A DNA stretch of 64,000 nt from an uncultured Verrucomicrobiae bacterium (GTDB taxonomy: Bacteria > Verrucomicrobiota > Verrucomicrobiia > Limisphaerales > UBA11358). The notes under the pieces are model-generated. The model was given only the letters and a program-made list of their open reading frames with translations, was not told where the DNA came from and searched no databases. Both the position numbers and the translations under genes were made by a program. Shown here in pieces: positions 29,568 to 50,886 of this stretch (within the stretch, counting starts at the first letter, position 1; each line of letters opens with the position of its first letter). Location of the stretch: assembly GCA_963708525.1 (NCBI GenBank), contig CAVPTH010000009.1, positions 94,648 through 158,647 on the forward strand, read 5' to 3'.

Positions 29568-29588
29568 TTTCCAGTAATCTGCGCAGAC

Positions 29589-31416: not shown

Positions 31417-31659
31417 GTGAGCGTTGTGGTGGTGAACTATAACTGCAAAAAATGGCTCGGTCGTTTTTTCCCTTCGTTACGCGCGCAAACGATTTTCGAC
31501 CGTACCGAAGTCATCATGGTGGATAACACATCAACGGATGGTTCGGCAGAGGTTTGTGAAAAAGAAATGGCGGGATGGCGGAACGGAGCCTTCCTCCCCA
31601 CCGGTGGCAATTACGGCTTTGGCGGTGGCAGCAACCGCGGCACGAAAATTCCAAGCTGA
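31417..31659 (+). pseudogene. Truncated N-terminal remnant (80 aa) of a family-2 glycosyltransferase
   Basis: VVVVNYNCKKWLGRFFPSLRAQTIFDRTEVIMVDNTSTDGS...GFGGGSNRG parallels residues about 8-95 of the intact GT2 at 26441-27490. It ends before the DxD motif, and no continuation appears in any frame. Confidence 0.7.
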
Positions 31660-31765
31660 AGTCTGGTGGATATGCGAGTGCTTTTCCGCTTTGGTTTTGG
31701 CCGTTCAGCGGATTAAACGTTTATTCAAGTCCGGCATCAAGATTGTGAAATCATGTCGGCAACCG

Positions 31766-31790
31766 TTTTAAAAACGAATGGCGCGATTCG
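31766..31790 (-). terminator. Weak candidate intrinsic terminator downstream of the LamG/Ig gene
   Basis: On the minus strand: CGAAT-cgcgcc-ATTCG (5-bp stem) followed by TTTTTAAAA. Confidence 0.3.
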
Positions 31791-31797
31791 TCCTCGT

Positions 31798-34700
31798 TCA
31801 CTGGCTGAGCAGCAAGCGATAAAATCGATTTGTCTCCGTCATCTGAACCGACTCCAGATATATACCACCTATTTGAATGGGCGGATTGGACACAATCACC
31901 CAATCTGCCGGAGACAGACTGGGAGTGGTTTCCAGTACAAAACCAGGTGAGCTCTGGGGCCAGAAGATATATAAGTTATTGCCTGATGGCGTCGCTCCGA
32001 GCGTCGGCGGCAGATGGACGGTCAGCACCGCGTTGGAACTGAGGACGGAATTGACGAGATTGCTTACCAGTACGGCGTATTGACCTGCCTGACTCAACTG
32101 AACATTGGTCAACACCAGGGTCGCGTTGGTTGCATTGGCAATGTTGGTCTGATTAAAGTTCCATTGATAACGTAACGGCATTGTGCCGGAGGCGGTCACA
32201 GCAAAACTTGCGGTGCCTCCAACATAAATCGTCAGGTTCGTAGGTTGGGCGGTGATCATCACCGGCGCCAAAACCGTCAAGAGAGCATTGGAACTGGTGA
32301 TGGAGCCGTACGCGTTGGTCACCAGAACCGAATAGCTGCCCGCGTTGGTCAATTGGGCATTGGCCAGGATTAATGCAGCATTGGTCGCCCCCGTGATGTT
32401 CGTAGTATTGAACATCCACTGATAACTCAAGGGCGGTGTCCCGTTTGCACTGACAGTAAAGGTGGCGGTCTGGCCCACCACCACCGTCTGATTGGTCGGC
32501 TGCATCGTAATCACCGGGAGCTGGCCAGGCGGACACTTGCCCCCGCTACCAGCCAGGTAAATCGCCGCCATCTCATTGGAGGACAACACACGATTGTACA
32601 CACTGAATTCGTCCAGGCTCCCTGCCCACAGCGTCGGCGGCACATCGCTTGCCCGCACACCCAAATAGAAGTCATAGCTGGTCTGCGGAACAATGTTGGT
32701 GGGAAAAGTTGTTTGAGCTACATTGACTCCGTTTAAATAAATCGTCGCCACTCCTGACGTTCGATCATAAGTAAACGCCACATGTTGATACACATTGGCA
32801 TGAACTACCCCGGCCGGCGATGCCAGTGTGTGATAACCATTGGGGGGATTGTTATTGGCGTCCTGGATGTTGAGGTACAAACATCCCGGTCCGGTGCCGT
32901 AGGAATCCCATAGGTGCACGCCCCATACACCTCCGTGGCTGTGGTTGTTCCACTCTACGATCGGCCGGGGGGCACTGTCGACGACAGAAGGATCAATCCA
33001 ACCTTCAACGGTCATCCCGTTCCCAACCCCGACATTCAGGCCGGAACTGGCCGGTACTCCTACATAGGCATTCGTTCCATTTAAATAAAACGCCTGTCCC
33101 ACCTCGCCATTGCTATAACTCAGGCCGCCTGCCGGCACTCCGTTGTTGGTTCCGATTAGGTCATTGGCATTGCCTTCCCCCGGCCACCAGCTCACCAATC
33201 CCGACGGCGCTGGATCACAATTGGTCGGAGATAGAACAACGGTCAACATCGCATTGGAACTGAGTGTGGAGCCGTACCTATTGGTCACCAAAACCGAATA
33301 GAAACCCGCATTGGTCAATTGCACGTTGGCTAGGATCAAGGAAGCATTGGTAGCCCCCGCGATGTTCGTTGTATTAAATGCCCAGTGATAGCTCAATGGC
33401 GGTGTCCCGCTTGCACTGACTGAGAACGCCGCCGTTTGACCTCCGATTACCGTCTGGTTGGTCGGCTGCATCGTAATCACCGGGGGCTGGCCAGGCGGAC
33501 ACTTACCCCCGCTTCCAGCCAGATAAATCGCCGCGATCTCGTTGGAGGATAATAGCCGATTGTACACACTGAATTCATCCAGGCTCCCTGCCCACAGCGT
33601 CGGCGGCACATCGCTTGCCCGTACACCTAAATAGAAATCATAACTGGTTTGCGGTACGATGCCGGTGGCAAACGTTGTCTGCGCTACATTGACACCGTTC
33701 AAATAAATCGTCGCCACTCCTGACGTTTGATCATACGTAAATGCCACATGTTGATACACATTGGCATGAACTATCCCGGCCGGCGATGCCAGTGTGTGAT
33801 AACCACCGGGGGGATTGTTGTTGGCGTCCTGGATGTTGAGGTACAAACATCCCGGTCCGGTGCCAAAAGCAGAGCTTGGCTGGGAATCCCATAAGTGCAC
33901 GCCCCATACACCTCCGTGGCTGTGGTTGTTCCACTCCACGATCGGCCGGGGGGCACTATCTACGACAGCAGGGTCAATCCAACCTTCAACCGTAAGACCA
34001 TTGTTGGTCCCCACATTCAGACTCCCACTGGCCGGTACTTCTACATAAGCATTCGTTCCATTTAAATAAAACGCCTGTCCCACCTCGCCATTGGTATAAC
34101 TCAGGCCGCCTGCCGGCACTCCGTTGTTGGTTCCGATTAGGTCATTGGCATTGCCTTCCCCGGGCCACCAGCTCACCAATCCCGACGGCGCTGGATCACA
34201 ATTGGTCGGAGGCAGAACAACCGTCAGTATGGCATTGGAACTGAGCACCGAACCCGCCAGATTGCTCACCATCACTGCGTAGGTGCCTGCCTGGTTGAGC
34301 TGGACGTCATCCAATATCAGCAAGGAGTTCGTTGCGCCGCTAATGTTCGTCGTATTGAATGTCCAGTGATAGCTCAAGGGCGGTGTCCCGTTTGCACTGA
34401 CGGTAAAGGTGGCTGTCTGGCCCACTACCACTGTGCTGTCAGCGGGTTGGTTGGTGATGACAGGGGCCATGGGGGTAAAACACTTACCTCCACCACCAGC
34501 CAGGTAGATCGCCCCAATCTCGTTGGAGGATAATACCCGGTTGTACACACTGAATTCATCCAGACTCCCCGCCCACAGCGTCGGCGGCACATCGCTTGCA
34601 CGTACACCTAAATAGAAATCATAACTGGTTTGCGGTACGATGCCGGTGGCAAACGTTGTCTGCGCTACATTGACACCGTTCAAATAAATCGTCGCCACTC

Positions 34701-35103
34701 CTGACGTTCGATCATACGTAAATGCCACATGTTGATACACATTGGCATGAACTATCCCGGCCGGCGATGCCAGTGTGTGATAACCACCGGGGGGATTGTT
34801 GTTGGCGTCCTGGATGTTGAGGTACAAACATCCCGGTCCGGTGCCATAAGCAGAGGCTGACTGGGAATCCCATAAGTGCACGCCCCATACACCTCCGTGG
34901 CTGTGGTTGTTCCACTCCACGATCGGCCGGGGGGCACTATCTACGACAGCAGGATCAATCCAACCTTCAACCGTAAGACCATTGTTGGTCCCCACATTCA
35001 GACTCCCACTGGCCGGTACTTCCACATAAGCATTCGTTCCATTCAAATAAAACGCCTGTCCCACCTCGCCATTGGTATAACTGGCCGCCGGCCGGCGTAC
35101 CAT
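31798..35103 (-). CDS. Repetitive LamG (concanavalin-A-like lectin) / Ig-like domain surface protein, (LamG-Ig)x3 plus Ig plus a C-terminal ...FYRLLLSQ domain; lacks its own signal peptide
   Basis: 1,101 aa containing three units of about 327 aa. Each unit has a LamG-type segment (GEVGQAFYLNGTNAYVEVP...GWIDP...IYLNGVNVAQTTF...LDEFSVYN) and an I-set-like Ig domain (PVITMQPTNQTV..GQTA.F.V.A.GTPPLSY.W.FNTTNI.GATN..L.L..VQL..AG.Y.V.V.N). Confidence 0.85.
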   Translation of the reverse strand: MVRRPAASYTNGEVGQAFYLNGTNAYVEVPASGSLNVGTNNGLTVEGWIDPAVVDSAPRPIVEWNNHSHGGVWGVHLWDSQSASAYGTGPGCLYLNIQDANNNPPGGYHTLASPAGIVHANVYQHVAFTYDRTSGVATIYLNGVNVAQTTFATGIVPQTSYDFYLGVRASDVPPTLWAGSLDEFSVYNRVLSSNEIGAIYLAGGGGKCFTPMAPVITNQPADSTVVVGQTATFTVSANGTPPLSYHWTFNTTNISGATNSLLILDDVQLNQAGTYAVMVSNLAGSVLSSNAILTVVLPPTNCDPAPSGLVSWWPGEGNANDLIGTNNGVPAGGLSYTNGEVGQAFYLNGTNAYVEVPASGSLNVGTNNGLTVEGWIDPAVVDSAPRPIVEWNNHSHGGVWGVHLWDSQPSSAFGTGPGCLYLNIQDANNNPPGGYHTLASPAGIVHANVYQHVAFTYDQTSGVATIYLNGVNVAQTTFATGIVPQTSYDFYLGVRASDVPPTLWAGSLDEFSVYNRLLSSNEIAAIYLAGSGGKCPPGQPPVITMQPTNQTVIGGQTAAFSVSASGTPPLSYHWAFNTTNIAGATNASLILANVQLTNAGFYSVLVTNRYGSTLSSNAMLTVVLSPTNCDPAPSGLVSWWPGEGNANDLIGTNNGVPAGGLSYSNGEVGQAFYLNGTNAYVGVPASSGLNVGVGNGMTVEGWIDPSVVDSAPRPIVEWNNHSHGGVWGVHLWDSYGTGPGCLYLNIQDANNNPPNGYHTLASPAGVVHANVYQHVAFTYDRTSGVATIYLNGVNVAQTTFPTNIVPQTSYDFYLGVRASDVPPTLWAGSLDEFSVYNRVLSSNEMAAIYLAGSGGKCPPGQLPVITMQPTNQTVVVGQTATFTVSANGTPPLSYQWMFNTTNITGATNAALILANAQLTNAGSYSVLVTNAYGSITSSNALLTVLAPVMITAQPTNLTIYVGGTASFAVTASGTMPLRYQWNFNQTNIANATNATLVLTNVQLSQAGQYAVLVSNLVNSVLSSNAVLTVHLPPTLGATPSGNNLYIFWPQSSPGFVLETTPSLSPADWVIVSNPPIQIGGIYLESVQMTETNRFYRLLLSQ

Positions 35104-35185
35104 TGTTGGCTCCGATTATGTCATTGGCATTGCCTTCCCCGGGCCACCAGCTCACCAATCCCGACGGCGCCGGATCACAGGGCAA
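32260..35185. repeat. Coding tandem repeat, 3 units of about 963-981 bp
   Basis: The Cys codon of CDPAPSG recurs at 35177-35179, 34198-34200 and 33217-33219 (spacing 979 and 981 bp). The out-of-frame track ORFs 33731-33934 and 34712-34915 are the same 67-aa string with 3 differences. Confidence 0.95.
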
Positions 35186-37751
35186 TCACCGTTAAATTGG
35201 CGTTAGAACTAAGTGTGGCGCCGTAAACGTTCGTTATCTCCACCGAGTACGTCCCCGCCTCACTGAATTGCACATTGGTCAAAGTCAGGGTGGCATTCGT
35301 CGCTCCTGTGATATTTGTCGTGTTGAAAGTCCATTGATAAACGAATGGTTTGGTGCCCACCGCCACCACAGCAAACTGGGCGGTTCCGTTCAGACCTACT
35401 GTGACATCGGCAGGTTCCTGGGTAATTACCGGCAGAGAGGGAATAATGGTCAACAGCACATTGGAGCTTATCGCAGTGCCGGCGGCGTTGCTCACAATGA
35501 CGTTGTAATATCCCACGTCGGCCCCGAAAGCATTGCTGATGATCAGATTCGGCGTCGTAGAGCCCGAAATGTTTCCTCCATCTATCAGGTTATTGCTGTT
35601 GTACTGCCACTGATAATATAACGGCAAGCCTCCGGTGGCCGTTACCGTGAACATAACCGCTTGCCCGTCCAACACCGCCTGGTTGGTCGGTTGCTGGTAA
35701 TCGTCGGAGGACTGAGCACCGCCAAAGCAAACTGACGGCTCCTGTCCGACCTGGTCATTCAAATTGGTGAACCAGACCGTCGCATAGTAAGTCCCGACCA
35801 GGAGGTTGCTGGCAACTGAATTCAAACTGATAACTACATTGGTTGCCGGTCCACCATGGGCCAATGTACCGCCACTGGCCGAAGCGTTAAGCCACAATGA
35901 CGTGTTGACCAGGCTCCAAGTCAGCAAATTGGTTCCCACGTTGGTCAGCGAGAAGTTCTGCTTTGTCACGGTGAAAGGACCACCCACCCCGCCCAGAGAT
36001 GTAAATCCGATGTTCGGGGTGATCTGCAGGGCCTCCGGATTGGCCAATGCACTGATCAGCTTTTGTCCATTGGGGGTGCCCCAACCGGTACATAAATCGT
36101 AACCGGTCACTGCGTAGAACTTGGTCGGGCTGAAAGGACTGGTATTGTTGCCAGTGGTGATATCGTGGAAACACGCCGTATAATTAGGACCGCTGCCAAT
36201 CGTATCAACCGCGGGATTGATAAAGCCCACCGCCGGTGCACCCGTAGCCGACGCCTGTTGATTCACCAGTGCTGTAAATCCCGCCCATAGTGGCGCGGCA
36301 CAACTGGTGCCTCCGACGTTGTAATCAGAGCCGTTGGCCCGAACATAAACATTGTCCGCCGTCAACGCTACATCTGGCGTGTTCCGCATTGTCGTCGATC
36401 CCTGGCTGGCCGTCATGTTGATATTCGTCTGCCAAAACGGAATCGGATATTGTGTGCTGATCCCACCGCCGCTGCCTATCCCATTGTCCCAATTCCACAC
36501 CCTCTCGGATACCCATACCCCACTTGCATTGCTCGTAGTCAATGTGGTTCCACCCACTTGAGTGATGTTGGTGCTGTCTCCCGGAAAATCAATCAGTCCG
36601 GTATAGGCATCGTAATCACCGGAAGCATTGTAGAAGGACTGTCCTTGTGCAGCCATCTCCTTCCAGACCTGCTCAGCCGCCGGCTCGGCCGGTCCGTTAG
36701 GGGCATACCAGGAACAACTCAATTGCTTGGCCAGATTGTCCGTGGCCATGCGATTGAGAATGTCCTCAAATGGACTCGGATTTGGAGCTTCGTAAACCAT
36801 CACCCGCGACAATCCGGGTGCCATTGAAATTGCCATTTCGATGTCCAGTGATACTTCTACTTCCCCGCCGGTGTGCGAAGGATTCCCGGTGGCACCATCG
36901 ATCAATACATTCGTCAACGTCACGTTCGGCAAGCCGGCCTTGTTTGCATAGTAAGTAATGTCGCTGGCCGTATAACCGTCGAATTGCAGCAGCCCCACCA
37001 CTTGTCCTGTTCCGTTCAACGTTGTGTCCGGGACATAAGCCGCGCGAAAATCGTTTCCCATGAAGGCGCCGCCGGGACCTGAACCAGCGTTGGATGTTAT
37101 CCCCTGTCCTTGAATCATCGACTTAACCCGATAATGCGGCCGCGGCAACGAATAACTGTTCAGCCCGCCAATACTCAAGATCGGCACCGCCAAATCCACC
37201 GTCGGTTCCTTATCCGGCGCGTAGAACGTTCGCGCTTCTCTCGGATGGTGATACTCCTGCAGGTTCACATGCATTACCCGTTCGATGTCGCCCACCGACG
37301 CGCGCACGTCCACCAGCATCCGGTTGGGATGCACGGTCGTCACCGTCAGCCCGTTGGCTTTGGCAAACGCGATCACTGCCTGATAATCCTGTTCCGTGGG
37401 CCCAAATCGTTCGGTGAACTGTTCGGGGGTCAGGTAATGATGGTAGTTCGGACTGGCCGGGTCATAGATTTCCCGGAGCAAATGGTCCAGGGCTTCGGGG
37501 TTGCGCAGTGGCAACCCGATGGCCAGATTTAAACGTTGGGAACGGTCCATTGCTCCGATGGGTTGCAAACCGGCGGTTGCCGCAGGCAACCGGACGGGCA
37601 CCACCTGCAGCTCAGCTGCTTGGCTGGTGAAAGCAAGCGGAGAAATCGTAACTGCCAAAGTCGTCCCGAGGAAAACGGCAGCCTTTTGGCACCAATTTAT
37701 TCGCCAGTCAACCAACCATTGAAGTATTTCCATAGCAAACTCCTGATTCAT
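35175..37751 (-). CDS. Peptidase S53 (sedolisin/kumamolisin-like) with pro-kumamolisin activation domain and C-terminal Ig-like domains
   Basis: Signal peptide present. The prodomain reads LRNPEALDHLLREIYDPASPNYHHYLTPEQFTERFGP. Catalytic elements are GGEVEVSLDIEM, NASGDYDAY and GGTSCAAPLWAG. There are two C-terminal Ig repeats (PLYYQWQY.., KPFVYQWTFNTTNITGATN). Confidence 0.88.
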   Translation of the reverse strand: MNQEFAMEILQWLVDWRINWCQKAAVFLGTTLAVTISPLAFTSQAAELQVVPVRLPAATAGLQPIGAMDRSQRLNLAIGLPLRNPEALDHLLREIYDPASPNYHHYLTPEQFTERFGPTEQDYQAVIAFAKANGLTVTTVHPNRMLVDVRASVGDIERVMHVNLQEYHHPREARTFYAPDKEPTVDLAVPILSIGGLNSYSLPRPHYRVKSMIQGQGITSNAGSGPGGAFMGNDFRAAYVPDTTLNGTGQVVGLLQFDGYTASDITYYANKAGLPNVTLTNVLIDGATGNPSHTGGEVEVSLDIEMAISMAPGLSRVMVYEAPNPSPFEDILNRMATDNLAKQLSCSWYAPNGPAEPAAEQVWKEMAAQGQSFYNASGDYDAYTGLIDFPGDSTNITQVGGTTLTTSNASGVWVSERVWNWDNGIGSGGGISTQYPIPFWQTNINMTASQGSTTMRNTPDVALTADNVYVRANGSDYNVGGTSCAAPLWAGFTALVNQQASATGAPAVGFINPAVDTIGSGPNYTACFHDITTGNNTSPFSPTKFYAVTGYDLCTGWGTPNGQKLISALANPEALQITPNIGFTSLGGVGGPFTVTKQNFSLTNVGTNLLTWSLVNTSLWLNASASGGTLAHGGPATNVVISLNSVASNLLVGTYYATVWFTNLNDQVGQEPSVCFGGAQSSDDYQQPTNQAVLDGQAVMFTVTATGGLPLYYQWQYNSNNLIDGGNISGSTTPNLIISNAFGADVGYYNVIVSNAAGTAISSNVLLTIIPSLPVITQEPADVTVGLNGTAQFAVVAVGTKPFVYQWTFNTTNITGATNATLTLTNVQFSEAGTYSVEITNVYGATLSSNANLTVIAL

Positions 37752-38111: not shown

Positions 38112-38888
38112 TTGATGAGAAGCCCTCCACCCAACCCGAAGAGCCCACCAGTGAAACTGTTGTCCGTGGTGATCCCCGCCCGCGATGAAGAGGGTTGTAT
38201 TGCCTCGACCGTCGAGCATTTGCATTTGGAACTGCGCCTGCAAAATGTCCCGCACGAAATTGTGGTGGTGGATGACGGCAGCACCGATACCACCTGGGAG
38301 ATTCTGTCCAGGTTGAAAAACGAGGTGGGGGAACTGAATCCGTGCAAAAATCCGCCGCCGCATGGTTTTGGACGCGCGGTGATCCAGGGATTGGACCACT
38401 CAAGAGGCGATGCGATCGTCATCATGATGGCCGATGAATCAGACGATTGCCGTGACGTGGTTCGATATTGGAAACTGCTGAACGAAGGTTACGATTGTGT
38501 CTTTGGCAGCCGTTTTGTGGCGGGAGGCGGGGTAATTGACTATCCCCGCTTCAAGCTGTTACTCAATCGACTGGCCAATTTTTTCATTCGAGTTTTGTTT
38601 AGAATCAAACTCAACGATATCACCAACGCTTTCAAGGCCTATCGGCGCGAAGTCATCGACGGCTGCCGACCTTTAATTTCGTCGCACTTCAACCTGACGG
38701 TGGAACTGCCGCTCAAAGCCATCGTCCGGGGGTTTTCGTGGAACACCATGCCCATCACCTGGCGTAACCGCCGAACCGGAACGCCGAAACTGAAAATCAA
38801 GGAGATGGGAAGCCGTTATCTCTTTATCTGCCTGTATGTTTGGCTGGAAAAGTACTTCAGCCGGGGTGATTATCGTAGAAAATTATGA
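38112..38888 (+). CDS. Family-2 glycosyltransferase of the polyprenol-phosphate sugar synthase type (GtrB/DPM1/ArnC-like)
   Basis: LSVVIPARDEEGCI, VVVDDGSTDTT, MMADESDD (DxD-like), NDITNAFKAYRREV and a C-terminal hydrophobic helix. The likely start is ATG 38115. Confidence 0.8.
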   Translation: MMRSPPPNPKSPPVKLLSVVIPARDEEGCIASTVEHLHLELRLQNVPHEIVVVDDGSTDTTWEILSRLKNEVGELNPCKNPPPHGFGRAVIQGLDHSRGDAIVIMMADESDDCRDVVRYWKLLNEGYDCVFGSRFVAGGGVIDYPRFKLLLNRLANFFIRVLFRIKLNDITNAFKAYRREVIDGCRPLISSHFNLTVELPLKAIVRGFSWNTMPITWRNRRTGTPKLKIKEMGSRYLFICLYVWLEKYFSRGDYRRKL

Positions 38889-39613
38889 TCCATAGTGAAA
38901 GCGAGCTCGCAACGATTTACGATCAACGGTTCAAAGGCAGACAAGATTACCGTAATCGTATGTGGCGGGTTTTGGTCACTGATTTCCTGCAAACCTATGT
39001 TCCGTTCGATGGGGCGGTATTGGATCTTGGCTGTGGTTATGGAGAATTTATCAACCACATTCGATGCCGCACCAAGTTTGGAATGGATATGAATCCCGAT
39101 ACTGCCAGACGCTTGTCTGCCGATGTTCAGTTTTTGCAGCAGGACTGCTCGATTGCCTGGAATCTTCCAGAGGCATCGCTGGATGTGATTTTTACCAGCA
39201 ACTTTTTCGAGCACCTTCCGAATAAACAGGTGTTGGCCTCGATCTTGAAGCAGGCATTTCGCTCCCTGAAGCCCGGCGGAAAGCTGATCGCATTGGGACC
39301 CAATATCAAATTCCTGTCGGGAGCGTATTGGGATTTTTGGGACCACCATCTGCCCTTGACAGAAAAGTCATTGGAAGAAGGGCTCAAAATTCACGGCTTT
39401 GAAGTGGTTTGTTGCAGAGACAGGTTTCTGCCTTACAGGATGCCCCAGGGAGTCCAGTATCCGATTTTATTTCTCAAGCTCTATTTAAAACTTCCGTTTG
39501 CCTGGCGCATCTGGGGAAGGCAGTTTTTCCTGGTTGCTCAGAGACCGAAAGCCAGCCTGGAGGCCGTCCGAGATAGCGCTCAAACCATTCCGGGGTTGCC
39601 GGCCACGCTTTGA
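38885..39613 (+). CDS. Class I SAM-dependent methyltransferase
   Basis: 242 aa with VLDLGCGYGEFI (motif I) and DVIFTSNFFEHL. ATGA overlap with the upstream GT2. Confidence 0.8.
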   Translation: MIHSESELATIYDQRFKGRQDYRNRMWRVLVTDFLQTYVPFDGAVLDLGCGYGEFINHIRCRTKFGMDMNPDTARRLSADVQFLQQDCSIAWNLPEASLDVIFTSNFFEHLPNKQVLASILKQAFRSLKPGGKLIALGPNIKFLSGAYWDFWDHHLPLTEKSLEEGLKIHGFEVVCCRDRFLPYRMPQGVQYPILFLKLYLKLPFAWRIWGRQFFLVAQRPKASLEAVRDSAQTIPGLPATL

Positions 39614-39623
39614 ACCGGACGAG

Positions 39624-40695
39624 ATGAACACACTAAAAGCTAAAATCATTTGTCTATTTGTCGCGTTGTCGCTGACGGTTACCTATTACTACGTCGTCAA
39701 ACCGTATGCAATGGGCACTCCGGGGAATGGGACGAATTTCTGGGTTTTTTCGGCCATGTCCCAAACCAGCCCCCATCTAAGTGCGATTTACCCCGTCTGG
39801 CGCTCTCGCGTTGGGGGTATGTGGATTACGGGAAAACTGGTGGACAGTGCAGTGAAGAATGGCGAACTCCGGATTGAAGACGTGCAACAGTTATTTGGGC
39901 TCTACCAGTCTGCGTGGCTCTTTCTGTTTTTTTTGATGCTGATTTTTCTTGTGGACGATCCGTTATTCGTCGTCACGGCCTGTTTTGCCTGCATGTTGTA
40001 CATGTTCACACCCAGGGCGAATTATTACTCCTACCCTTGGGATTTGCCGGGCATGATCTTTTTCACATTGAATTATCTCCTTTGGCGTAAAAAGCGTTTC
40101 AATCTTATGCTATTGGTGCTGTTCGTGGGTTATTTCTTCAAGGAAACCATCATTTTATCCGGGGTGTTGTTCTTTTTTACCGACCTGACAAAAGCCTATA
40201 AGATCCGATATCTCGCGGCTACGGCTGGCATTGCTTTCTTAATGAAAGCCGGAATTACTTTGGTCATCGACGGTAGAATCTCATTCGTCACCAACCAGTT
40301 CATCTCGGGTACCTCGGACGAACGGTTCTAAAAACTTCCAACTCCTCATTAATCTGAAGGACTTGGCCACACCGACCCTGAATCATTTCATTTTCACGAA
40401 TGGTGGCACTTTTCTCATTTCCCTGTGTCTGCCAATGAAGACGCAGGTTGAAAAAGGGACAAAAGCGGTGATCGGCATCTTCGCTTTGGCTGCGCTTTTG
40501 GCCGGTGCCTTGAACGAATTTCGAATCATGTTGGATATCCTGCCGATTTCCATTCTAGCCATCCGCGAATATCTGGTAAATCCACGTAACGCGGTTGTCT
40601 CTGATCAGATCCCGGACAAACGATCGCCTTCCAAAATTGAACGGGCGGGCAAAACCATCGATTCCCGGAAAATTGCTGCCAATGATAAAAAATGA
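39624..40695 (+). CDS. Polytopic membrane protein of unknown function; may be one gene (39624-40331 plus 40363-40695) joined across a 1-nt frameshift near 40320
   Basis: Start at MNTLKAKIICLFVALSL. Several hydrophobic segments are present. The downstream 110-aa ORF is also hydrophobic, and its frame is open back through the stop of the first ORF. Confidence 0.5.
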
Positions 40696-40800
40696 CTTGC
40701 GGAAAACTATTCTTGATTTGGTGTCCCGTCAAGCGATTGACCGCAGAAACTGCGGGCGGAAAACTTTTTCCTTCTGCCGCCTGACTACAGCACACATTGC

Positions 40801-41832
40801 ATGAAAATTCTGGTCACTGGCTCAAATGGATTGATTGGTTCTGAAGCGGTCATTTATTTCGACCGCGAAGGACACGAAGTCATCGGCGTTGATAACAACC
40901 TGCGGCGCGAGTTTTTCGGGCCGGCGGGCGACACCTTGTGGAATTTGGAACACCTGAAAAAGACCGCCCGTCGTTTTCGCCACTTGAGTCTGGACATCCG
41001 GGACCGGCAAAAAATCCTTGACCTGTTCAAGCAGGAGCGGTTCGACCTGATCGTCCACTGTGCCGCACAACCTTCGCACGACAAAGCGGCTGAGATCCCA
41101 TTTATTGATTTTGATGTCAATGCCGGCGGCACCCTGAACCTGCTCGAGGCCACCCGGCAATCAAACAAGGAAGCCGTTTTCATTTTCATGTCCACGAACA
41201 AGGTATACGGTGATGCGCCCAACGAAATCCCCTTGAAGGAACTGCCCACGCGCTGGGATTATGCGCGACCCGAAGACTGGCATGGCGTAAATGAAAATTG
41301 TCGGATTGATCACACCCTGCACAGCCTTTTTGGGGCCAGCAAAACCGCAGCGGACGTGGTGGCACAGGAGTACGGCCGTTATTTCAAAATGAACGTCGGC
41401 ATTTTTCGCGGCGGCTGTCTCACCGGCGAACATCATTCCGGCGCTCAGGCGCACGGGTTTTTGTCGTACCTGATGAAAGTCGCGAAAGCCGGCCAGACGT
41501 ACTCCATTTTTGGTTATCAGGGCAAGCAGGTGCGGGATCAGATCCACAGCTCCGATGTCATTTTAGCTTTTGTGGAATTTGCGAAAAATCCCCGGCCCGG
41601 CGAGGTGTATAATCTCGGTGGCGGACGCGAAAATGCCGCGTCCTTGCTGGAATGCGTGTCGAAAATCGAAGGCCTGCTGGGTTGCAAAGTCCAAACCGAA
41701 TACGTGGATCAGGCGCGCAAAGGCGACCACATCTGTTACATCAGTGATTTGCGAAAACTAAAAAGCCACTACCCGAACTGGCGAATCACCCAGTCGCTGG
41801 ATCAAATCCTGGAACGGATGGCAGCGACTTGA
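40801..41832 (+). CDS. CDP-paratose/tyvelose 2-epimerase-like NAD-dependent epimerase (extended SDR)
   Basis: [48 protein letters not shown] and [13 protein letters not shown] resemble Salmonella RfbE as I recall it. Confidence 0.75.
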
Positions 41833-42931
41833 TATCCCCAAAATTCAGGCTTAAAGATCGGCCGACACATTCCAGCCAGTCCTTGTGCGCGTGCGCATGC
41901 TGTGCCACTTCGTCAAAGATTTCCGTAAGCTTCGTCTGAGGCTGCCAGTTCCAGAATGCGGCGGCCCGATTTGAATCCATGATCATCCACGGAATATCAA
42001 ATTGACGCGGGGTCGGATCGGCCTCGATTTTGTGCTCGCCAAACTGATCGGCGCACCAACGGCTGAGTTGCAACAAGGAAAAGGCATTGGCCGGTCCACC
42101 GCCGAAATTAAAAATCCGATCTTCCGGCCGGTCATGGTAAGCAAACTGTCTGAGCAAAACGGGCACCAAATCCCGCGGATGAAGGACATCACGCGTCTGG
42201 TGTCCACGGCCATTAAAGCCGATGTACTTGAGCGGACGACGACGCAAACAGGCATTGATCCAAAAGCTGACGATGCCTTGATCGGCGCGCCCGAATTGTC
42301 CCGCCCCCGCCAATACCCCGCAACGGTTAATCCAAACCGGCAATTCGAATGCCTCACCGTATTCGAGCGCAAGAAATTCCGAGGCCAGTTTGCTCGCGCC
42401 ATACAGGGAGAGCGGCGGCCGGGTGGAGAAGTCTTCGGTCACACCTTGCGCCGAAATGCCTTCGGGAAGCGGTTTGCCCGAATCGAGCGTGAACGCTCCG
42501 TTCTTCTCCGACATTGGCAGTCCGGCCAGGGCATGAATGGAATACACCCGGCTCGTGCTCAATAGAGTGAAACCCGCTTTATGCCGCTTGCAGAACTCCA
42601 ATACATTGATGGTGGACACCAGATTGTGGTCGAGAATCTGACGGCTGCTGGTCTTGCCATCCACACCAGCCAGCACGCTGGGATTGGCCGCTGCGTCAAT
42701 CACCCAATCGAACACCGGCAGCGCATCCAAATCCGACGCCAGGCGCAAGTCACCATGATAAAGTTTTATCCCCCGCTGTCGCAGCAGGTGTCGGTTCGTT
42801 TCACTGCCGGCGCGGGAAAAATTGTCCAGGCCAGAGATGATCAGCGGTTCACCGGTACGGCGTTGATCCTGCAGGGCACAGGCAATCGTTGAGCCGACAA
42901 ACCCACAAATCCCCGTAATCAGCAGTCTCAT
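41786..42931 (-). CDS. Second CDP-paratose/tyvelose 2-epimerase-like NAD-dependent epimerase (paralog)
   Basis: Start at [14 protein letters not shown], with [26 protein letters not shown] and [13 protein letters not shown]. Its 3' end overlaps the convergent paralog by 47 bp. Confidence 0.75.
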
Positions 42932-43234
42932 CGTTGTGGAGTCATTTAGACTGGTAAATTTGGCAAAAAGCAAGTTCGGTTTCTCAGGTTCGAGCCAGTT
43001 CCCGTGCTTTCTGCTTTCAGTTTACTGGTTATCAACACCCTGGTGCAATTCAGCTGCTGCCGGAGGGCTGAATTGCGTCTTAATCCTCCGAACCGGCGAC
43101 TTGGCAGCGTATGAATATAGGATTCCTGTATTTCACTTCCTGATGGCTGAATGCAAAACAAAATGCAATGCCATTAGTATCAAACGTATCATTGGAGCGC
43201 AGGCAAACCTCCAAACCGGAGCTCAAAAGAAAAA

Positions 43235-44041
43235 TTATCGAACTCGCTGCCAAAATCTTCCCTGGCCGTCTATGTCTTGTATTTCTTCGCTGATGCCATG
43301 TTTATTCCGATAATCCTGTACCGCCTTTTCACACATGGGCAGCGAGTAATCATCCACAATCAGATATCCTCCAGCCGAAAGCTTCGGATACAGCGCTGTC
43401 AGCGCGTCCATCGTGGATTCGTACAAGTCTCCATCCAACCTGGCTATCGCCAGTTTGGAAATTGGCGCGCCGGGCAATGTGTCCTTGAACCAGCCTTTTA
43501 GAAATCGCACCTGGTCGTCCATCAAATCATAGGCGGCGAAGTTTGCTTTGACCTGTTCCAACGACACTTTCAATTCCTTTACAAAATATTGCAGGTCACC
43601 GGCATCGGCAGGGTACTTTTTTGAGTTCGGCTTGGGCAAACCTTCGAACGAATCGGCAACCCACACAGTGCGATCCGTCACGCCCCACACTTTGAGCAAG
43701 GCTTTCATGAAAATAACTGAGCCACCCCGCCACACCCCGGTTTCAATAAAATCTCCAGGGATACTGTTCTTAATGACGTCTTCGACACAAAATTGCAGAT
43801 TGTTCAGTCGTTTCTGGCCAATCATCGTTTGGGCTTGGATCGGCCAACCCAAGCCGCGCTCGATTTCGTCCTGAGTCATCAACTTATGGCACCGGACATC
43901 AGGCCACAGCATTCCAAGTAACATCCGGGCTGGAAATGTCTGGGGCCAGATTTTGCCGGTCATTCCCGGGTAAATCAATCCGCTCAAGCACCGCTTCATC
44001 AGGCCGATATAAAGCTCGTTAATGTTAGTTGGTTTACTCAT
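43235..44041 (-). CDS. TylF/MycF-family (macrocin-O-methyltransferase-like) SAM-dependent O-methyltransferase
   Basis: Start at MSKPTNINELY, with GDFIETGVWRGGS, VWVADSFEGLP and ARLDGDLYEST, characteristic of the TylF family. Confidence 0.8.
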   Translation of the reverse strand: MSKPTNINELYIGLMKRCLSGLIYPGMTGKIWPQTFPARMLLGMLWPDVRCHKLMTQDEIERGLGWPIQAQTMIGQKRLNNLQFCVEDVIKNSIPGDFIETGVWRGGSVIFMKALLKVWGVTDRTVWVADSFEGLPKPNSKKYPADAGDLQYFVKELKVSLEQVKANFAAYDLMDDQVRFLKGWFKDTLPGAPISKLAIARLDGDLYESTMDALTALYPKLSAGGYLIVDDYSLPMCEKAVQDYRNKHGISEEIQDIDGQGRFWQRVR

Positions 44042-44051
44042 TCTCAAAAAA

Positions 44052-44080
44052 ACATAACAATTGGTCTCCAAACCTGTCAA
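44052..44080 (-). promoter_or_regulatory. Candidate sigma70-type promoter for the TylF-like methyltransferase
   Basis: On the minus strand: TTGACA (44080-44075), a 17-nt spacer, then TTATGT (44057-52), about 10 nt before the ATG. Confidence 0.35.
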
Positions 44081-44164
44081 GGCATCGTGGCAGTGATGCT
44101 TCATAATCTTGACAGCCAGAACTGGAAAATTGATGATTAAGTTTTGAACGCCTGACGCGCATCT

Positions 44165-46858
44165 GTGAACGCCACGAAACCACACATCACCACTAAGTTC
44201 CAAGGCCTTTCGGTTGGGCTGATGCTGGCAATAATTCTGGGATTGTTATTTTGGAAATGCTTTTTGCCGAACTATGTTCACTTCAACAACGACGGACCGC
44301 TCGGGCAGCAAAATGCCGCCTGGCACCAGCTGTCCTGCCGGCTTTTCCGGTTGCTGGTATGACTTGAACGACATCGGCAGTAGCGCAGGCATCATCGCAC
44401 CGTCTTTGAGCACGCTGATTCATTTGGATGCTGGGCCCGGTCGGCTGTGCAAAATTTATCGCGCCCATCGCTTTGCTCATATTAGGTCTTTGTGCCTGGA
44501 ATTTTTTCCGACAATTGAAGCTCTCACCATTGGCGGCGGTTTTGGGTGCCTTGGCGGCAACACTGATTTCCACTTTTTTTTCGGACGCCTGCTGGGGCAC
44601 GGCTCCGCATCAAATCGCTTTCGGGATGGATTTCCTGGCGCTGGCCTTGATTGTTTCCAATTCAGCCACGACCCCGTGGTTTGTTCGTTGGGCGCGACTG
44701 GCCCTGGCGGGATTCGCCGTAGGAATCAACGTGGTTGAAGCAGCAGATATCGGCGCCATTTTCAGTCTGTTCGTCGCCGCGTTTGCTCTGTTCCACTCGC
44801 TCACGGAAACCGGCACCGTGGCCAGAAAAATTGGTCATGGAATCGGACGTGTCGTCATCATTAGCCGCATTTGCGGGTTTTTTTGCCGCTCAAACCATTC
44901 AAGCACTGGTCGGCACCAACATTCAGGGCATCCTCGGCATGAAACAAAATGAGGAAGCAAAAGCGGCGCAATGGGACTGGGCCACGCAATGGAGTCTTCC
45001 CAAAGCCGAGGCATTTGGAATCATTGTGCCCGGACTGTTCGGTTACCGGATGGATACGCCGGATGGCGGCAATTACTGGGGCGGCGTCGGACGCGACGCG
45101 TCTTGGGATCGTTATTTTGCCAATGGAGAACAGGGTTCACCACAAGGGTTCCAGCGTTTCTGTGGCACTGGCAACTATGCGGGTATTCTGGTCATTTTGG
45201 TGGCCGCCTGGGCGATTGCACAATCGTTGCGCCGACAAAATTCAGTATTCTCGGAAACACATCGGCGATTTCTTTGGTTCTGGACAGCGGTGCTGCTGGT
45301 TTCACTGCTTTTGGCATTTGGTCGATTTGCCCCGTTCTATCAGTTCTTCTATGCGTTGCCGTACTTTTCGACCATTCGCAATCCCATGAAGTTTCTTTTC
45401 GTCTTTTCCTGGGCCATCGTCATCATCTTTGCCTACGGCATCCACGGGTTGAGTAGACGCTATTTGGAAGTTCCGGCGACCGGTTCTGGTTCAGTGTTTG
45501 CCCAGTTTAAAACGTGGCGGGCCAAAGTCCGCGGTTTCGACCGGAATTGGATTTCGGTCTGTATCATCATTTTGATAGGCGGTCTGCTGGCCTGGTTGAT
45601 TTATGCGTTACAGAAACCAAACCTGGTTGCCAATCTTAAATTGGTGGGTTTTCCCGATGAAAATATGGCCGGCCAGATTGCTGCTTTCAGCATTCATCAA
45701 GTCGGCTGGTTCGTTTTATTTTTCGCACTCGCGACCGCATTGCTCGCCTTGATCTTGAGCGGGGCTTTTGCCGGGCGCCGGGCCAAATGGGCCGGAATAT
45801 TGCTTGGCGCGTTGCTGCTTTTGGACCTGGGACGCGCGGATTTACCCTGGATTGTGTTTTGGAATTATCCGCAAAAGTATGCGAGCAATCCCGTTATTGA
45901 GGTGCTACGTGACAAACCCTACGAGCATCGTGTTGCCATGTTGCAAACCCGCTCGCCGGACCACTTGCCCCTTTACGATGACCAGTTTGAAGGCCTTTAC
46001 AATATTGAGTGGTCCCAGCAACTGTTCACCTATTACAACATCCAGTCGCTGGACGTTATTCAGATGGCGCGCATGGCGGAGGATTTGGCAGCTTACCGCG
46101 GAGCACTGGCACCGCGAGGGACACTGGATACGGCATATCTCATTGCCCGTCGTTGGGAACTAACCAATACGCGCTACCTGTTGGGTCTCGCCGGCTATCT
46201 TGATGCGCTGAACACAGAACTCGACCCGGCCAGACACCGGTTCCGGATCGCTGTCCGATTTGATGTGGTGCCAAAACCGGGCATTGACCGAGTCACCAGT
46301 TTTGAACAATTGACCGCCCTGCCCAGTGATAACGGCGCTTGTGCGCTGTTTGAATTTACCGGTGCGCTACCACGTGCCATGCTGTATTCCCAGTGGCAGG
46401 TCAGCACGAACGATAGCATGACGCTTCAGACACTCGTTAGCGCGAACTTCGACCCTTGGAAATCGGTCCTGGTCTCTACGCCATTACCAGAGATGCCGGC
46501 GGGCAACGCGACCAACGAGAATTCCGGCACAGTTGAATTCAAAAGCTATGCCCCGGCCGATATCCTGTTAAACGCGCAGGCCAACGCGCCGTCCGTGCTG
46601 CTGCTCAATGACAAATTTGACCCGAACTGGCATGTGTTTGTAGATGGCAAATCTGCTCCCCTGCTTCGCTGCAATTTCATCATGCGCGGGGTTTATTTGC
46701 CTCCCGGCACCCATTCGGTGGAATTCAAGTTCTTGCTTCCGATGGGCCCACTTTATATCACCCTTTCGGCCATCAGCGTTGGAATTCTTTTATGCGGATT
46801 TCTGATTTTTTCCACACGGCGGATCGCCCACCGTTTAAGACCGGTCCATCAGGTTTGA
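44165..46858 (+). pseudogene. Large YfhO-like (GT-C-type) membrane protein, N-terminal 700 bp broken by three +1 frameshifts
   Basis: Four consecutive ORFs (44165-, 44274-, 44428-, 44735-46858) read on as one hydrophobic protein. The joins are ..AAWHQL/PAGFSGCWYDLN (about 44331-44336), ..STLIH/WMLGPVG (T-run 44423-44425) and ..GRVVII/AAFAGFFAAQ (about 44858-44865). FAPFYQFFYALPYFSTIRNPMKF resembles YfhO family proteins. Confidence 0.65.
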
Positions 46859-48247: not shown

Positions 48248-50188
48248 ATGAGCAATTCAAACGATGCGAGTTCGCCGTGGAGCATCGACGCGGCGCGCTC
48301 TCTTTACAACATCCGCCGCTGGGGCGCGAAGTATTACGACATCAACGAGGCGGGGCATGTTGTGGCCCGTCCGTTGCAGGATGCGGGCGTGGCGGTGGAT
48401 TTGACGGATGTCACTGAGGAAGCCAAGGCGCGGGGGTTGAAGTTTCCGCTGCTCATCCGGTTTCAGGATATTTTGCGTCATCGGGTCGAGTCGTTGAATC
48501 AGGCCTTTCGCACCGCTATCACGGAATACAATTATCAGGGCCGATATCGCGGTGTATTCCCCATCAAGGTGAACCAGTTACGCGAAGTGGTGGAGGAAAT
48601 CCTCGACGCGGGCAAATTGTACGAATTCGGCCTCGAAGTCGGCAGCAAGCCGGAGTTGTTTGCCGGACTGGCGCTGCAAAACCAGATGGGTTGTCTGATT
48701 GTCTGTAATGGTTACAAGGACGCGGAGTTCGTCAAAATGGCCATGCTCGGCATCAAATTGGGCAAGACGGTCATCATGGTCGTGGAGAAACTGGAGGAGC
48801 TGCGGCAAATCATTACCATTTCCAAGCAGCTCGGAGTCGAACCGCTGATCGGCATCCGGGCGCGGCTGTTGAGCAAGGGGGCCGGACGCTGGGCGGAAAG
48901 CGGTGGCGAAAACGCGAAGTTCGGCCTGAGCACGGCGGAAATCCTGGAGGCAACGGAATTGTTAAAGACTGAAAACCTCGGTCACTGCCTCAAGTTGCTG
49001 CACTTTCACATTGGCTCGCAGGTGCCGGACATTTTAACGGTCAAAAAGGCGGTGCAGGAGGCTGCGCGCTTTTACGCCAAGCTGCACAAGATGGGCTTCC
49101 CGATTTCATACCTCGACGTCGGCGGCGGCCTGGGTGTGGACTATGATGGCAGCCGCTCGGCATTCGACAGCTCGACCAATTATACCCTGCAGGAATATAC
49201 CAACGACGTGGTCTATTACATCGCCGACGTGTGCAATGCGGAAAAGGTCCCGCACCCGGACATCATCAGCGAAAGTGGACGCGCCATCGTCGCCCATCAC
49301 AGTGTTCTAATTGTCGAAGTCTTCGGCGCCATCGAAAAAATCCGGCCCAACGGGTTCTTGAAGTATGGCGACCAGGAGCACCCTCTGGTGCAGGAGCTGC
49401 TGGAAATCAAACAAAACCTGCCGAAGCTCAACATGTTGGAGGCCTACCACGACGCGCTGGAAAGGCGCGAGGATGCACAGCACATGTTTACCCTCGGCGT
49501 CCTGGACTTGCCGGATAAGGCGAAGATCGAAGACCTTTACTGGCAGATCAGCCGGGCGGTGGTCGAGCATTACAAGGGCCAGCATTATGCGCCGGAGGAA
49601 ATTCGTCAGCTGGAAGACAGCCTCGGCGATCAATATCTCTGCAATTTCTCTGTATTCCAATCATTGCTCGATCACTGGGCGCTGGATCAGCTTTTCCCGA
49701 TCATGCCCATCGCCCGGTTGAACGAACGCCCCACCCGCGAAGGCACACTCGTGGACATCACGTGTGACTCCGACGGGCAGGTCAACAAATTCATCGATTT
49801 TCGTGACGTGCGCGATACGCTGCCGCTGCACCAGCTCAACAGCAACGGCAACGGCCTGCCGGAGCCCTATTATATCGGATTTTTTCTCATGGGCGCCTAT
49901 CAGGATATCATGGGTGACTTGCATAACCTCTTCGGTCGTGTCAATGAAGTGCACGTTTTTCTCGAACCTGACGAACCGACCGGTTATTACATCGAGGAAA
50001 TCATCGAAGGTAACACCATCATCCAATCGCTGGCGGCGGTGCAATATGATGAAAACGAACTGAAACGCCAGATGAAGGCGCAGATTGACGAGGCGATTAA
50101 ATCCGACCGTATGAAGCCCTCCGAGGCCATGCGACTGCTTGATGATTACGAACGCGGCTTGAAGGCGTATACCTACCTTTCGTTTTGA
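48248..50188 (+). CDS. speA: Biosynthetic arginine decarboxylase
   Basis: 646 aa. SIDAARSLYNIRRWG, FPIKVNQ (PLP lysine region), HFHIGSQ and GGGLGVDYDG are typical of SpeA. Confidence 0.93.
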   Translation: MSNSNDASSPWSIDAARSLYNIRRWGAKYYDINEAGHVVARPLQDAGVAVDLTDVTEEAKARGLKFPLLIRFQDILRHRVESLNQAFRTAITEYNYQGRYRGVFPIKVNQLREVVEEILDAGKLYEFGLEVGSKPELFAGLALQNQMGCLIVCNGYKDAEFVKMAMLGIKLGKTVIMVVEKLEELRQIITISKQLGVEPLIGIRARLLSKGAGRWAESGGENAKFGLSTAEILEATELLKTENLGHCLKLLHFHIGSQVPDILTVKKAVQEAARFYAKLHKMGFPISYLDVGGGLGVDYDGSRSAFDSSTNYTLQEYTNDVVYYIADVCNAEKVPHPDIISESGRAIVAHHSVLIVEVFGAIEKIRPNGFLKYGDQEHPLVQELLEIKQNLPKLNMLEAYHDALERREDAQHMFTLGVLDLPDKAKIEDLYWQISRAVVEHYKGQHYAPEEIRQLEDSLGDQYLCNFSVFQSLLDHWALDQLFPIMPIARLNERPTREGTLVDITCDSDGQVNKFIDFRDVRDTLPLHQLNSNGNGLPEPYYIGFFLMGAYQDIMGDLHNLFGRVNEVHVFLEPDEPTGYYIEEIIEGNTIIQSLAAVQYDENELKRQMKAQIDEAIKSDRMKPSEAMRLLDDYERGLKAYTYLSF

Positions 50189-50886
50189 TTGAGACCCAAA
50201 ATCCTGAAATCGAAACTCGAAACAAAGCCGAATTGCTTCACTCGCTCGGACGGTTGACGCGAGGTTTATCCGCCTTGTTCTGGGGATTGCCAACATCGCT
50301 GGTCATCGGCGTGCAAACCGTCCGAACCGATTGGTTGAGATCCTTTGGACTGGTTCCAGCACTGGCGGCGACCGGATTGTTGGTTTTCGGGCTCTGGCAG
50401 ATGGGCGATTTCCAGAAACAGGAACGCCCCTGGCGCAACGTGCTGGACCGGGCGAAACTCCTGGCTCTCGTCAACTTCGGGCTTTGCCCGTTTCTTTACT
50501 GGCACAATCGCCTGCCGCAGGAATCCTTTTTCAGCGCCGCGGTCTTTGTGCTGGCCCTCTCGGCCGTAACCTTTTTATTCAACTTGAATGTGGTCCTCAA
50601 ACAGTTGGGGGCTATGCTCCCGGATGAAACCCTTCGGCACGAGACCGGACTGTTTACCTTGCTCAATCGCTGGTTGCTCGGCTTTCTGCTGTTGTTGACG
50701 GCCGTTTACGAAGTGTTGCTCCGCGCAACGCCCATGCTGTTGGAATTCGGTATCCGTTCCGTCTGGTTCAACGAGCTCGGCTTATGGTTGCTGGTATTCT
50801 TTGCTCTGTTGCCACTGGCCATGACCATGGCGCTCATCTGGAAAACCAAAGAAACCATCTTCGACAGCGTGTTTGATGCGAAGTGA
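50185..50886 (+). CDS. Hypothetical multi-pass membrane protein, start/stop-overlapped with speA and the aminotransferase
   Basis: 233 aa with 5-6 hydrophobic segments and no motif I recognise. The TTG start is uncertain. Confidence 0.55.
   Translation: MIETQNPEIETRNKAELLHSLGRLTRGLSALFWGLPTSLVIGVQTVRTDWLRSFGLVPALAATGLLVFGLWQMGDFQKQERPWRNVLDRAKLLALVNFGLCPFLYWHNRLPQESFFSAAVFVLALSAVTFLFNLNVVLKQLGAMLPDETLRHETGLFTLLNRWLLGFLLLLTAVYEVLLRATPMLLEFGIRSVWFNELGLWLLVFFALLPLAMTMALIWKTKETIFDSVFDAK

Follow-up and report, generated by a model that had tools for sequence, protein, structure and literature searches.

Three-component glycosylation systems acting on the extracytoplasmic side of the membrane have been described as Gtr, CsbB/YfhO and GtlA/GtlB (PMC5836110; PMC7389260; PMC8035078), and an auxiliary cytoplasmic epimerase of the short-chain dehydrogenase/reductase (SDR) type was shown in the three-component system of Citrobacter youngae O2 (Kelly et al., 2024; PMC11127046). 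Periplasmic glycosylation via lipid-linked monosaccharides drives surface antigen diversity as well as resistance to phages and antimicrobial peptides, and the known systems of this kind come from a few pathogens and Gram-positive bacteria. In this study, a 64,000-nt stretch of contig CAVPTH010000009.1 (hereafter, the window) from an uncultured Verrucomicrobiae bacterium (assembly GCA_963708525.1) was analyzed for seven genes at positions 38112–46858. They encode a family 2 glycosyltransferase (GT2), an S-adenosylmethionine (SAM)-dependent methyltransferase (MT), a polytopic membrane protein (MEM), two extended SDRs (EPI1 and EPI2), a TylF-family O-methyltransferase (TylF) and a membrane protein of about 889 aa (BIG). 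With moderate confidence, the region is read as two things that happen to be neighbors in this lineage, namely a self-contained EPI1–EPI2–GT2–MT–MEM cassette that would provide both a donor and its transferase, and the unrelated BIG, a core protein of glycosyltransferase C (GT-C) fold. By analogy with the described systems, the whole is probably a system for periplasmic glycosylation, Gtr/Arn-like in kind, whose donor cassette is undescribed.

All seven genes had been listed in a preliminary description of this DNA, and all of them are intact in a collinear metagenome-assembled genome (MAG; GCA_041482195.1, locus L001) that is 94.3% identical to the window over 15.7 kb. A BIG-family profile recovered 423 species loci in the GTDB representatives, nearly all from Verrucomicrobia subdivision 3/Limisphaerales-type MAGs or unclassified, and the wider BIG superfamily comprised 35,639 clusters at 50% identity (E ≤ 1e-3). 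Neighborhoods were counted for the best 80 of the 423 loci, the denominators being the loci with enough sequence. NIF3 lay downstream of BIG in 44 of 57 loci, and the BIG locus is anchored by NIF3 and SpeA. GT2 was found upstream of BIG in 5 of 65 loci, MT and MEM in 4 of 65, and a TylF of at least 60% identity stood beside BIG in 3 of 65. Other BIG loci carried differing glycan genes on both sides, such as the Wzx-like protein with 12 transmembrane (TM) segments, the GT2, GT4, nucleotidyltransferase, DegT aminotransferase and RmlC-like genes of L083. Because the neighbors differ between loci and BIG stays, BIG is constant within a glycan locus that is otherwise hypervariable. In Verrucomicrobia subdivision 3 it counts as a core gene, and TylF is one of the variable glycan genes around it. 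The TylF family assignment of the preliminary description holds, as PF05711 scored 330 bits against a gathering score of 23 and was covered at profile positions 2–264 of 264.

These counts bear directly on the model favored by the preliminary description, in which GT2 and BIG form a CsbB/YfhO-type donor–transferase pair and MEM is an accessory protein such as a flippase. The two genes stand at most 7 kb apart in the window and in L001, L003, L004, L055 and L018, BIG combines a GT-C fold with a YfhO-like C-terminus, and the absence of another flippase candidate nearby would leave that role free for MEM. However, GT2 was absent from 60 of the 65 BIG loci with enough upstream sequence, and the search for co-occurrence showed GT2, or the GT2–MT unit, in six places where BIG was not nearby (L084, L086, L088, L089, a 22-kb metagenome contig designated P0140, and a further contig encoding PMT_2), so that the two are not co-conserved. 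The paired model is therefore considered unlikely, and further points against it arise from the genes that follow GT2.

Cassettes related to that of the window were found in several arrangements. L003, L004 and L055 retain GT2–MT–MEM–EPI2, and two of them EPI1 as well. The 22-kb contig encodes two SDRs, a 585-aa protein in which GT2 and MT are fused, and a MEM homolog of 62% identity. In L088, an SDR with Phe in place of the catalytic Tyr (F-type, 54% identity) and one with Tyr (Y-type, 56%) accompany a GT2 (75%) and an MT (58%, with a 4-nt overlap), after which come genes for an unrelated polytopic protein (397 aa), a ligase-like Wzy_C protein and a heptosyltransferase (Glyco_transf_9). A third distant contig holds an SDR, a GHMP kinase, GT2 and MT, followed by a PMT_2 GT-C, Wzy_C and Glyco_transf_9, and L089 holds a Wzy_C–TPR protein, an F-type SDR (53%), GT2 (78%) and MT (61%). 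GT2 is 75–79% identical between the window and the distant cassettes. In L084 and L086, a GT2 of 78–79% identity adjoins MEM–TPR homologs of only 36–38% identity, and in L018 the gene behind a GT2 of 87% identity encodes a different polytopic protein, of 536 aa. The actual unit is an F-type SDR, in some cases a second SDR, GT2 and the ATGA-coupled MT, with a variable polytopic protein (of the MEM family, PMT_2 or another kind) behind or beside GT2 or GT2–MT in most of the places examined. Among the genes at positions 786–1985 of the 22-kb contig, one with a faint phage-integrase match was also noticed a few kb from the fused cassette, which hints at possible mobility of the cassette with the fused GT2–MT.

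Conserved donor genes next to a variable polytopic neighbor correspond to the pattern of gtrB/gtrC and arnC/arnT. The 536-aa protein of L018 and the 397-aa protein of L088 had no Pfam match, so the PMT_2 case is the only named GT-C in the slot after GT2–MT; its presence argues for a transferase slot and thus against pairing GT2 with BIG. The class of system named in the preliminary description, a carrier-lipid module working at the periplasmic face, thus fits, but the partner assignment does not; MEM, the multi-pass protein left there as a bystander, is a likelier partner of GT2 than BIG.

The relatives of GT2 are consistent with a carrier-lipid enzyme. All seven of its PDB sequence matches were archaeal DPMS (5mlz, E = 1.4e-19), ArnC or GtrB (sll0501), and no other PDB relatives were returned. 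Five of the six best NCBIfam matches were dolichyl- or polyprenyl-phosphate sugar transferases; the top matches included dolichyl-phosphate hexose transferase, AglJ, PgfS and ArnC, and PpgS ranked sixth. From these relationships, GT2 is predicted to be a polyprenyl-phosphate sugar synthase that groups apart from processive GT2s. The start of MT overlaps the stop of GT2 as ATGA at position 38885, confirming the coupling noted earlier. The MT family is large (5207 homologs at E ≤ 1e-10), and MT was GT2-linked in all four distant places examined, directly after GT2 in three and fused to it in one.

EPI1 and EPI2 are convergent, and, as had been proposed, both have their closest solved structure in CDP-tyvelose 2-epimerase (EPI1, 9rl0/1orr, E = 2.5e-41; EPI2, 1orr/9rl0, E = 1.2e-22). 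EPI1 carries Phe at the position of the catalytic Tyr (residue ~179), reading SLFGASK against SPYGCSK in TyvE. This Phe is kept in every EPI1 ortholog at 52–97% identity, including those of the distant cassettes, and was seen in L003, L004, L019, L022, L088, L089 and others. EPI2-type proteins retain the Tyr, with YGASK in EPI2 itself. The Phe-type SDR is the constant SDR partner of the GT2–MT unit and is usually paired with a Tyr-containing paralog. In about 10 BIG loci, the same F-type/Y-type pair stands beside Leloir GT2 and GT4 genes without a DPM1-like GT2, and for that reason the two SDRs most likely work at the nucleotide-sugar level; action on a lipid-linked sugar in the style of DprE1/DprE2 was ranked lower on the same grounds. 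Neither NTP_transferase nor DegT-type genes, nor genes of the CDP-3,6-dideoxyhexose pathway (cytidylyltransferase, CDP-glucose dehydratase, E1/E3 and paratose synthase), were found among the open reading frames (ORFs) scanned at 16.6–53 kb.

MEM had no match in Pfam, NCBIfam or PDB by sequence and profile searches, the latter including a profile search against all PDB chains. Its family comprised 58 homologs, the distant ones of about 570 aa with C-terminal TPR repeats. The predicted model reached a mean predicted local distance difference test score (pLDDT) of 80, and its best fold overlaps, none of them significant, were with the GT-C enzymes STT3, AftB and AftA, which recurred at query-normalized template-modeling scores (TM-scores) of 0.35–0.43. 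D74, D140, K173 and E174 are invariant, and the model together with the positive-inside rule predicts their loops to be periplasmic. MEM is proposed to be a small GT-C-like transferase that would use the product of GT2. Relatives of MEM with fused TPR repeats resemble transferases more than flippases, which again argues against the accessory role that MEM has in the GT2–BIG pair model. The idea that MEM is a truncated paralog of BIG was rejected, since hhalign of the two gave a probability of 1.3%. In another locus, L085, at least four tandem genes of about 580 aa flank a MEM–TPR homolog at 2060–13098, and TPR matches were found in at least two of them; if these are MEM paralogs, they would form a battery of alternative transferases, with no GT2 in view.

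The preliminary description called BIG a YfhO-like protein of about 900 aa. PF09586 (YfhO) scored 19.1 bits on BIG, below the gathering score of 28.5, and matched only the C-terminal 58 residues; the intact 97% identical homolog P0001 scored 18.5 bits, and both matches were limited to profile positions ~765–835. Among the close BIG members, 33 of 49 matched PF09586 at E ≤ 0.01, and a C-terminal YfhO match was present in 10 of 10 distant members, three of which passed 28.5, with the C-terminal part only. BIG had no NCBIfam match, and its profile gave no meaningful match among all PDB chains and none to a solved GT-C. The AlphaFold model (pLDDT 64.5; predicted template-modeling score 0.67) had as top Foldseek matches AftD, ArnT, STT3, Pmt4 and AftA, with probabilities of 0.96–1.00. 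From the model and hydropathy, BIG consists of 13–14 TM segments in its N-terminal part, a beta-rich periplasmic domain of 300 residues and a final anchoring helix at 860–882, which is the YfhO-type architecture of an N-terminal multi-TM GT-C core, an extracytoplasmic domain and a C-terminal TM anchor in about 850–900 aa. The first extracytoplasmic loop, after TM1, carries two invariant residues, D43 and D66. A GT-C fold distantly related to YfhO is thus supported, and membership of the YfhO family is not established.

Taken together, the cassette could work as follows. EPI1 and EPI2 would tailor a nucleotide hexose in the cytoplasm, and the peripheral GT2 would move the tailored sugar onto polyprenyl phosphate at the inner membrane face. 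The coupled or fused MT may methylate the sugar at or around the GT2 step. A flippase, for which the family-less 12-TM protein encoded upstream (Table 1) is the only candidate, would turn the lipid-linked sugar across the membrane, and MEM, or elsewhere PMT_2 or another polytopic protein, would pass it to a periplasmic acceptor. Lipopolysaccharide (LPS) core or O-antigen is suggested as this acceptor, because WaaL-like neighbors occur in three distant cassettes and heptosyltransferase genes in two. BIG would probably act separately, as a GT-C transferase of a lipid-linked glycan to a conserved envelope acceptor and not as the dedicated partner of GT2. Of this scheme, the families and folds, the order and joint occurrence of the genes, the single fusion and the frameshifts are observed; the substrates, the timing of methylation, the membrane topology, the acceptor and the transferase role of MEM are inferred.

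Several observations weigh against this reading. GT2 falls far under every curated equivalog cut-off, the best being 63.8 bits against 375 (NF041391) and the ArnC model giving 45.3 bits against 529. It also lacks the C-terminal TM helix that the preliminary description assigned to it, unlike GtrB, ArnC and archaeal DPMS, which have such helices; the maximum 19-residue hydropathy window is 1.15, and the C-terminal stretch YLFICLYVWL is too short for a TM helix. Further, GT2 carries MAD where DPMS, ArnC and GtrB carry the DAD metal motif, as MMADESDD within its IMMADESDD aligns to VMDADLQH of DPMS and LDADLQN of ArnC with the first Asp replaced by Met; the MAD motif is common to all cassette GT2 copies examined. 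The three features would suit a cytoplasmic Leloir enzyme that adds the tailored sugar to a lipid-linked or soluble glycan, with no lipid-carrier monosaccharide involved and with the neighboring membrane proteins being polymerases, ligases or transporters, as would the Wzy_C genes that adjoin three distant cassettes. This alternative is judged quite improbable, given that all PDB relatives and five of the six best NCBIfam matches of GT2 are polyprenyl- or dolichyl-phosphate sugar synthases, and that PMT_2, which needs polyprenyl-phosphate sugar donors, occupies the downstream slot once. Human DPM1 and actinobacterial Ppm1 likewise have no TM helices, and the 245-aa size of GT2 fits this TM-less class. 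On its sequence features, GT2 is best placed in the polyprenyl-phosphate sugar synthase class, as a peripheral and divergent enzyme of DPM1 size; its DPM1/GtrB/ArnC type stands and its predicted helix does not.

The remaining points against the cassette model concern its other parts. With the SDR catalytic Tyr missing, EPI1 may be no enzyme at all; judged from its sequence it may be a pseudoenzyme or may use a different catalytic base. The fold matches of MEM were not significant (best Foldseek E = 0.29), it also has no relative in Pfam, NCBIfam or PDB, and it could be a flippase or something else. In L089, no membrane protein follows the cassette. The model of BIG has moderate quality and TM-scores of only 0.2–0.44, and in the few lineages that have GT2 and BIG side by side, BIG could still draw on the product of GT2. 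Finally, no GtrA-like flippase, which the preliminary description had advised looking for, was found in the window.

If the cassette is read in this way, a broader picture can be offered tentatively, at clearly less than even confidence. The Tyr-less SDR, the MAD-type GT2 and MT would constitute a widespread undescribed route to a methylated or epimerized polyprenyl-phosphate hexose for LPS, served by swappable transferases; MEM would found a minimal GT-C family, and BIG would be a large YfhO-related core GT-C family acting on a conserved envelope acceptor. In the literature, nothing specific was found on a GT2–methyltransferase–GT-C combination or on verrucomicrobial YfhO-like proteins. The coupling of glycosyltransferase, epimerases and methyltransferases, which had been called undescribed, is not new with respect to the SDR epimerase, which is known from C. 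youngae O2 (PMC11127046), and no description was found of a coupled or fused methyltransferase or of a Tyr-less SDR. As far as the searches reach, novelty lies in the conserved combination of a TyvE-like SDR without the catalytic Tyr, a DPM1-like GT2 with a MAD motif and an MT that is coupled or fused, in the small membrane proteins without a family that take the transferase slot, and in BIG being a core gene of its clade. The cassette is apparently unstudied, and it is unusual in the physical coupling of MT to a carrier-lipid GT2, in its Tyr-less SDR and in the family-less proteins in the transferase slot. BIG, a GT-C protein of about 900 aa, belongs to the core envelope genes of a major Verrucomicrobia clade of soil and freshwater, whose cell-surface chemistry is almost unknown.

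Several of these genes carry frameshifts in the window, which were located by aligning it to L001. Six 1-nt insertions were found, at 40320 (MEM), 41867 (EPI2), and 44332, 44419, 44863 and 46821 (BIG). BIG is interrupted at the first three of its insertions and has an altered C-terminus from 46821, so that it bears four insertions instead of the three frameshifts reported before; the one suspected in MEM was confirmed, with an intact form of the gene in L001. The insertion in EPI2 had been missed. It swaps the last residues and lengthens the ORF, the ancestral stop being near 41851. Compared with intact homologs, further frame switches were seen in a GT2 gene near 23213 and in a C-methyltransferase gene at ~30960–31000 and ~31150–31250. 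Programmed frameshifting in BIG was ruled out, as the shifted frames hold stops and the gene is a single unbroken ORF in the relative of 97% identity.

The insertions may be real, in which case the locus is dead here, with the cassette, BIG and the upstream C-methyltransferase and GT2 genes being recent pseudogenes and the surface glycan lost. In agreement with this possibility, the at least nine frame breaks at 23–47 kb all fall in glycan genes, none occurs in the housekeeping genes at 47–57.5 kb, and none of the six insertions at 40–47 kb lies in a homopolymer run. On the other side, all six of these coding insertions are +1 and four strike one gene, and strain-variable glycan loci are prone to consensus errors in metagenome assemblies. 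Moreover, the ratios of nonsynonymous to synonymous substitution rates (dN/dS) against L001 were 0.116 for BIG (0.10 in the shifted zone), 0.135 for MEM and 0.066 for EPI2, and those of the intact neighbor genes ranged from 0.04 to 0.35. As these ratios show no relaxed selection, the insertions either arose very recently or reflect consensus errors in a region that varies between strains. Consensus errors are mildly favored over real inactivation, and a dead locus is regarded as a substantial possibility that falls somewhat short of even. Two exact-pattern scans of JGI metagenome contigs, allowing either allele at 44863 and 40320, found no copies, and an exact-sequence look-up of the EPI1 protein of the window returned no record. 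A long-read MAG of the clade (MFD04434.bin.2.19, locus L040) was noticed to have frameshifts of its own in housekeeping genes, in the SpeA region at 13500–15342, from which it follows that indel errors do occur in public assemblies of this clade.

The coordinates of the features are collected in Table 1. The TylF gene is divergent from the BIG gene, and a promoter and terminator scan of 37.7–47.8 kb was uninformative, with counts not above those of shuffled sequence. The cassette closes a larger glycan region, which comprises a GHMP kinase, a GFO/IDH oxidoreductase, SDRs, an FkbM methyltransferase, the 12-TM protein, GT2, GT4 and GT2 genes, and further the RmlD-like, RmlC-like and C-methyltransferase genes. 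In L003, the RmlD-like, RmlC-like, C-methyltransferase and 366-aa GT2 genes lie immediately next to the DPM1-like GT2; in the window, two secreted genes sit between the C-methyltransferase/GT2 remnant and the DPM1-like GT2. These two are one ORF of at least 1540 aa in L004, which suggests that the window may have a further frameshift near 35100–35180.

Table 1. Genes of the cassette, BIG and selected upstream features in the window
Feature	Position	Strand	Description
12-TM protein	21781–23073	+	Assigned by hydropathy; 53% identity to a 423-aa protein of L083
RmlD-like reductase	28614–29567	+	Pfam
RmlC-like cupin	29568–30104	+	Pfam
C-methyltransferase	30065–31350	+	Pfam; two frameshifts; intact 415-aa gene in L003
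Remnant of a 366-aa GT2	31436–31771	+	111 aa; intact 366-aa GT2 in L003
Two large secreted genes	31798–37751		LamG/Ig (1101 aa); pro-kumamolisin/Ig (858 aa)
GT2	38151–38888 (longest ORF from 38112)	+	245 aa; PF00535, E = 2.2e-23
MT, class I SAM methyltransferase	38885–39613	+	242 aa; Methyltransf_23/11/25
MEM, polytopic membrane protein	39624–40695	+	356 aa; no family match; 1-nt insertion at 40320
EPI1, extended SDR	40801–41832	+	343 aa; tyvelose-epimerase-like; SLFGASK
EPI2, extended SDR	41786/41851–42931	-	359 aa; tyvelose-epimerase-like; YxxxK intact
TylF-family O-methyltransferase	43235–44104	-	PF05711, E = 1.2e-98
BIG, GT-C-fold membrane protein	44165–46858	+	~889 aa; four 1-nt insertions

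The 12-TM protein, whose gene lies 15 kb upstream, was the single flippase candidate noted in the window; it had no Pfam match even at E ≤ 0.1. ORFs of 90–260 aa with at least three hydrophobic segments were limited in the window to a BIG fragment and a 233-aa protein at 50185–50886. The latter, with about six TM segments, likewise found no Pfam match at E ≤ 0.1, and is kept between SpeA and an aminotransferase in L001 and L002. The SpeA arginine decarboxylase gene (48248–50188) showed a synonymous divergence from L001 of 0.45, against 0.05–0.23 in the neighboring genes, which suggests a recombination mosaic around SpeA.

Compared with the described systems, the SDRs resemble CDP-tyvelose 2-epimerase (TyvE/RfbE; 1orr, 9rl0), to which both align over the full length, sharing the GxxGxxG motif and the STNKVYG region. 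Unlike TyvE, they show only about 30–35% identity to it, EPI1 has Phe at the catalytic Tyr, and no CDP-3,6-dideoxyhexose pathway genes accompany them among the ORFs examined.

The ArnC/ArnT, Lgm, Flm and Rgt pathways of lipid A and core modification likewise employ an ArnC-related GT2 and a polyprenyl-phosphate sugar, the latter being predicted here, and in one distant cassette a PMT_2/ArnT-type GT-C takes the slot equivalent to that of MEM. In contrast to Arn, there is no ArnA/B/D-type chemistry and no ArnE/F flippase here, and MEM is about 200 residues shorter than ArnT with no detectable sequence similarity. We know of no methylation step in the Arn, Lgm, Flm and Rgt pathways.

The pentofuranose systems of C. 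youngae O1/O2 and the mycobacterial DprE1/DprE2 likewise involve a lipid-linked monosaccharide donor. The C. youngae systems also share a GT-C transferase, there with a C-terminal carbohydrate-binding module, and a cytoplasmic SDR that fixes the identity of the sugar. Their flippase is of MOP/MATE type and not GtrA, the candidate in the window being the 12-TM protein. They differ in that their donor synthase is a polyprenyl phosphoribose synthase acting on phosphoribosyl pyrophosphate, where GT2 stands here, in that they have no methyltransferase, and in that their SDR has an intact YxxxK motif, while the constant SDR of the present cassette has FxxxK.

The GtrA/GtrB/GtrC systems of O-antigen glucosylation by Shigella and Salmonella phages, and the CsbB/YfhO or GtlA/GtlB systems of teichoic acid glycosylation, likewise use a GtrB/DPM1-related GT2. 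In these systems, as here, a highly conserved donor gene is followed by a variable polytopic membrane protein, and a YfhO-related GT-C-fold protein is encoded in the same locus. However, the YfhO-like BIG is not co-conserved with GT2, the window has no small flippase of the GtrA/GtcA type, and GT2 is without the pair of C-terminal TM helices found in GtrB and CsbB and has MAD for DAD. Unlike these systems, the cassette described here adds one or two tyvelose-epimerase-like SDRs and a SAM methyltransferase that is coupled or fused to GT2.

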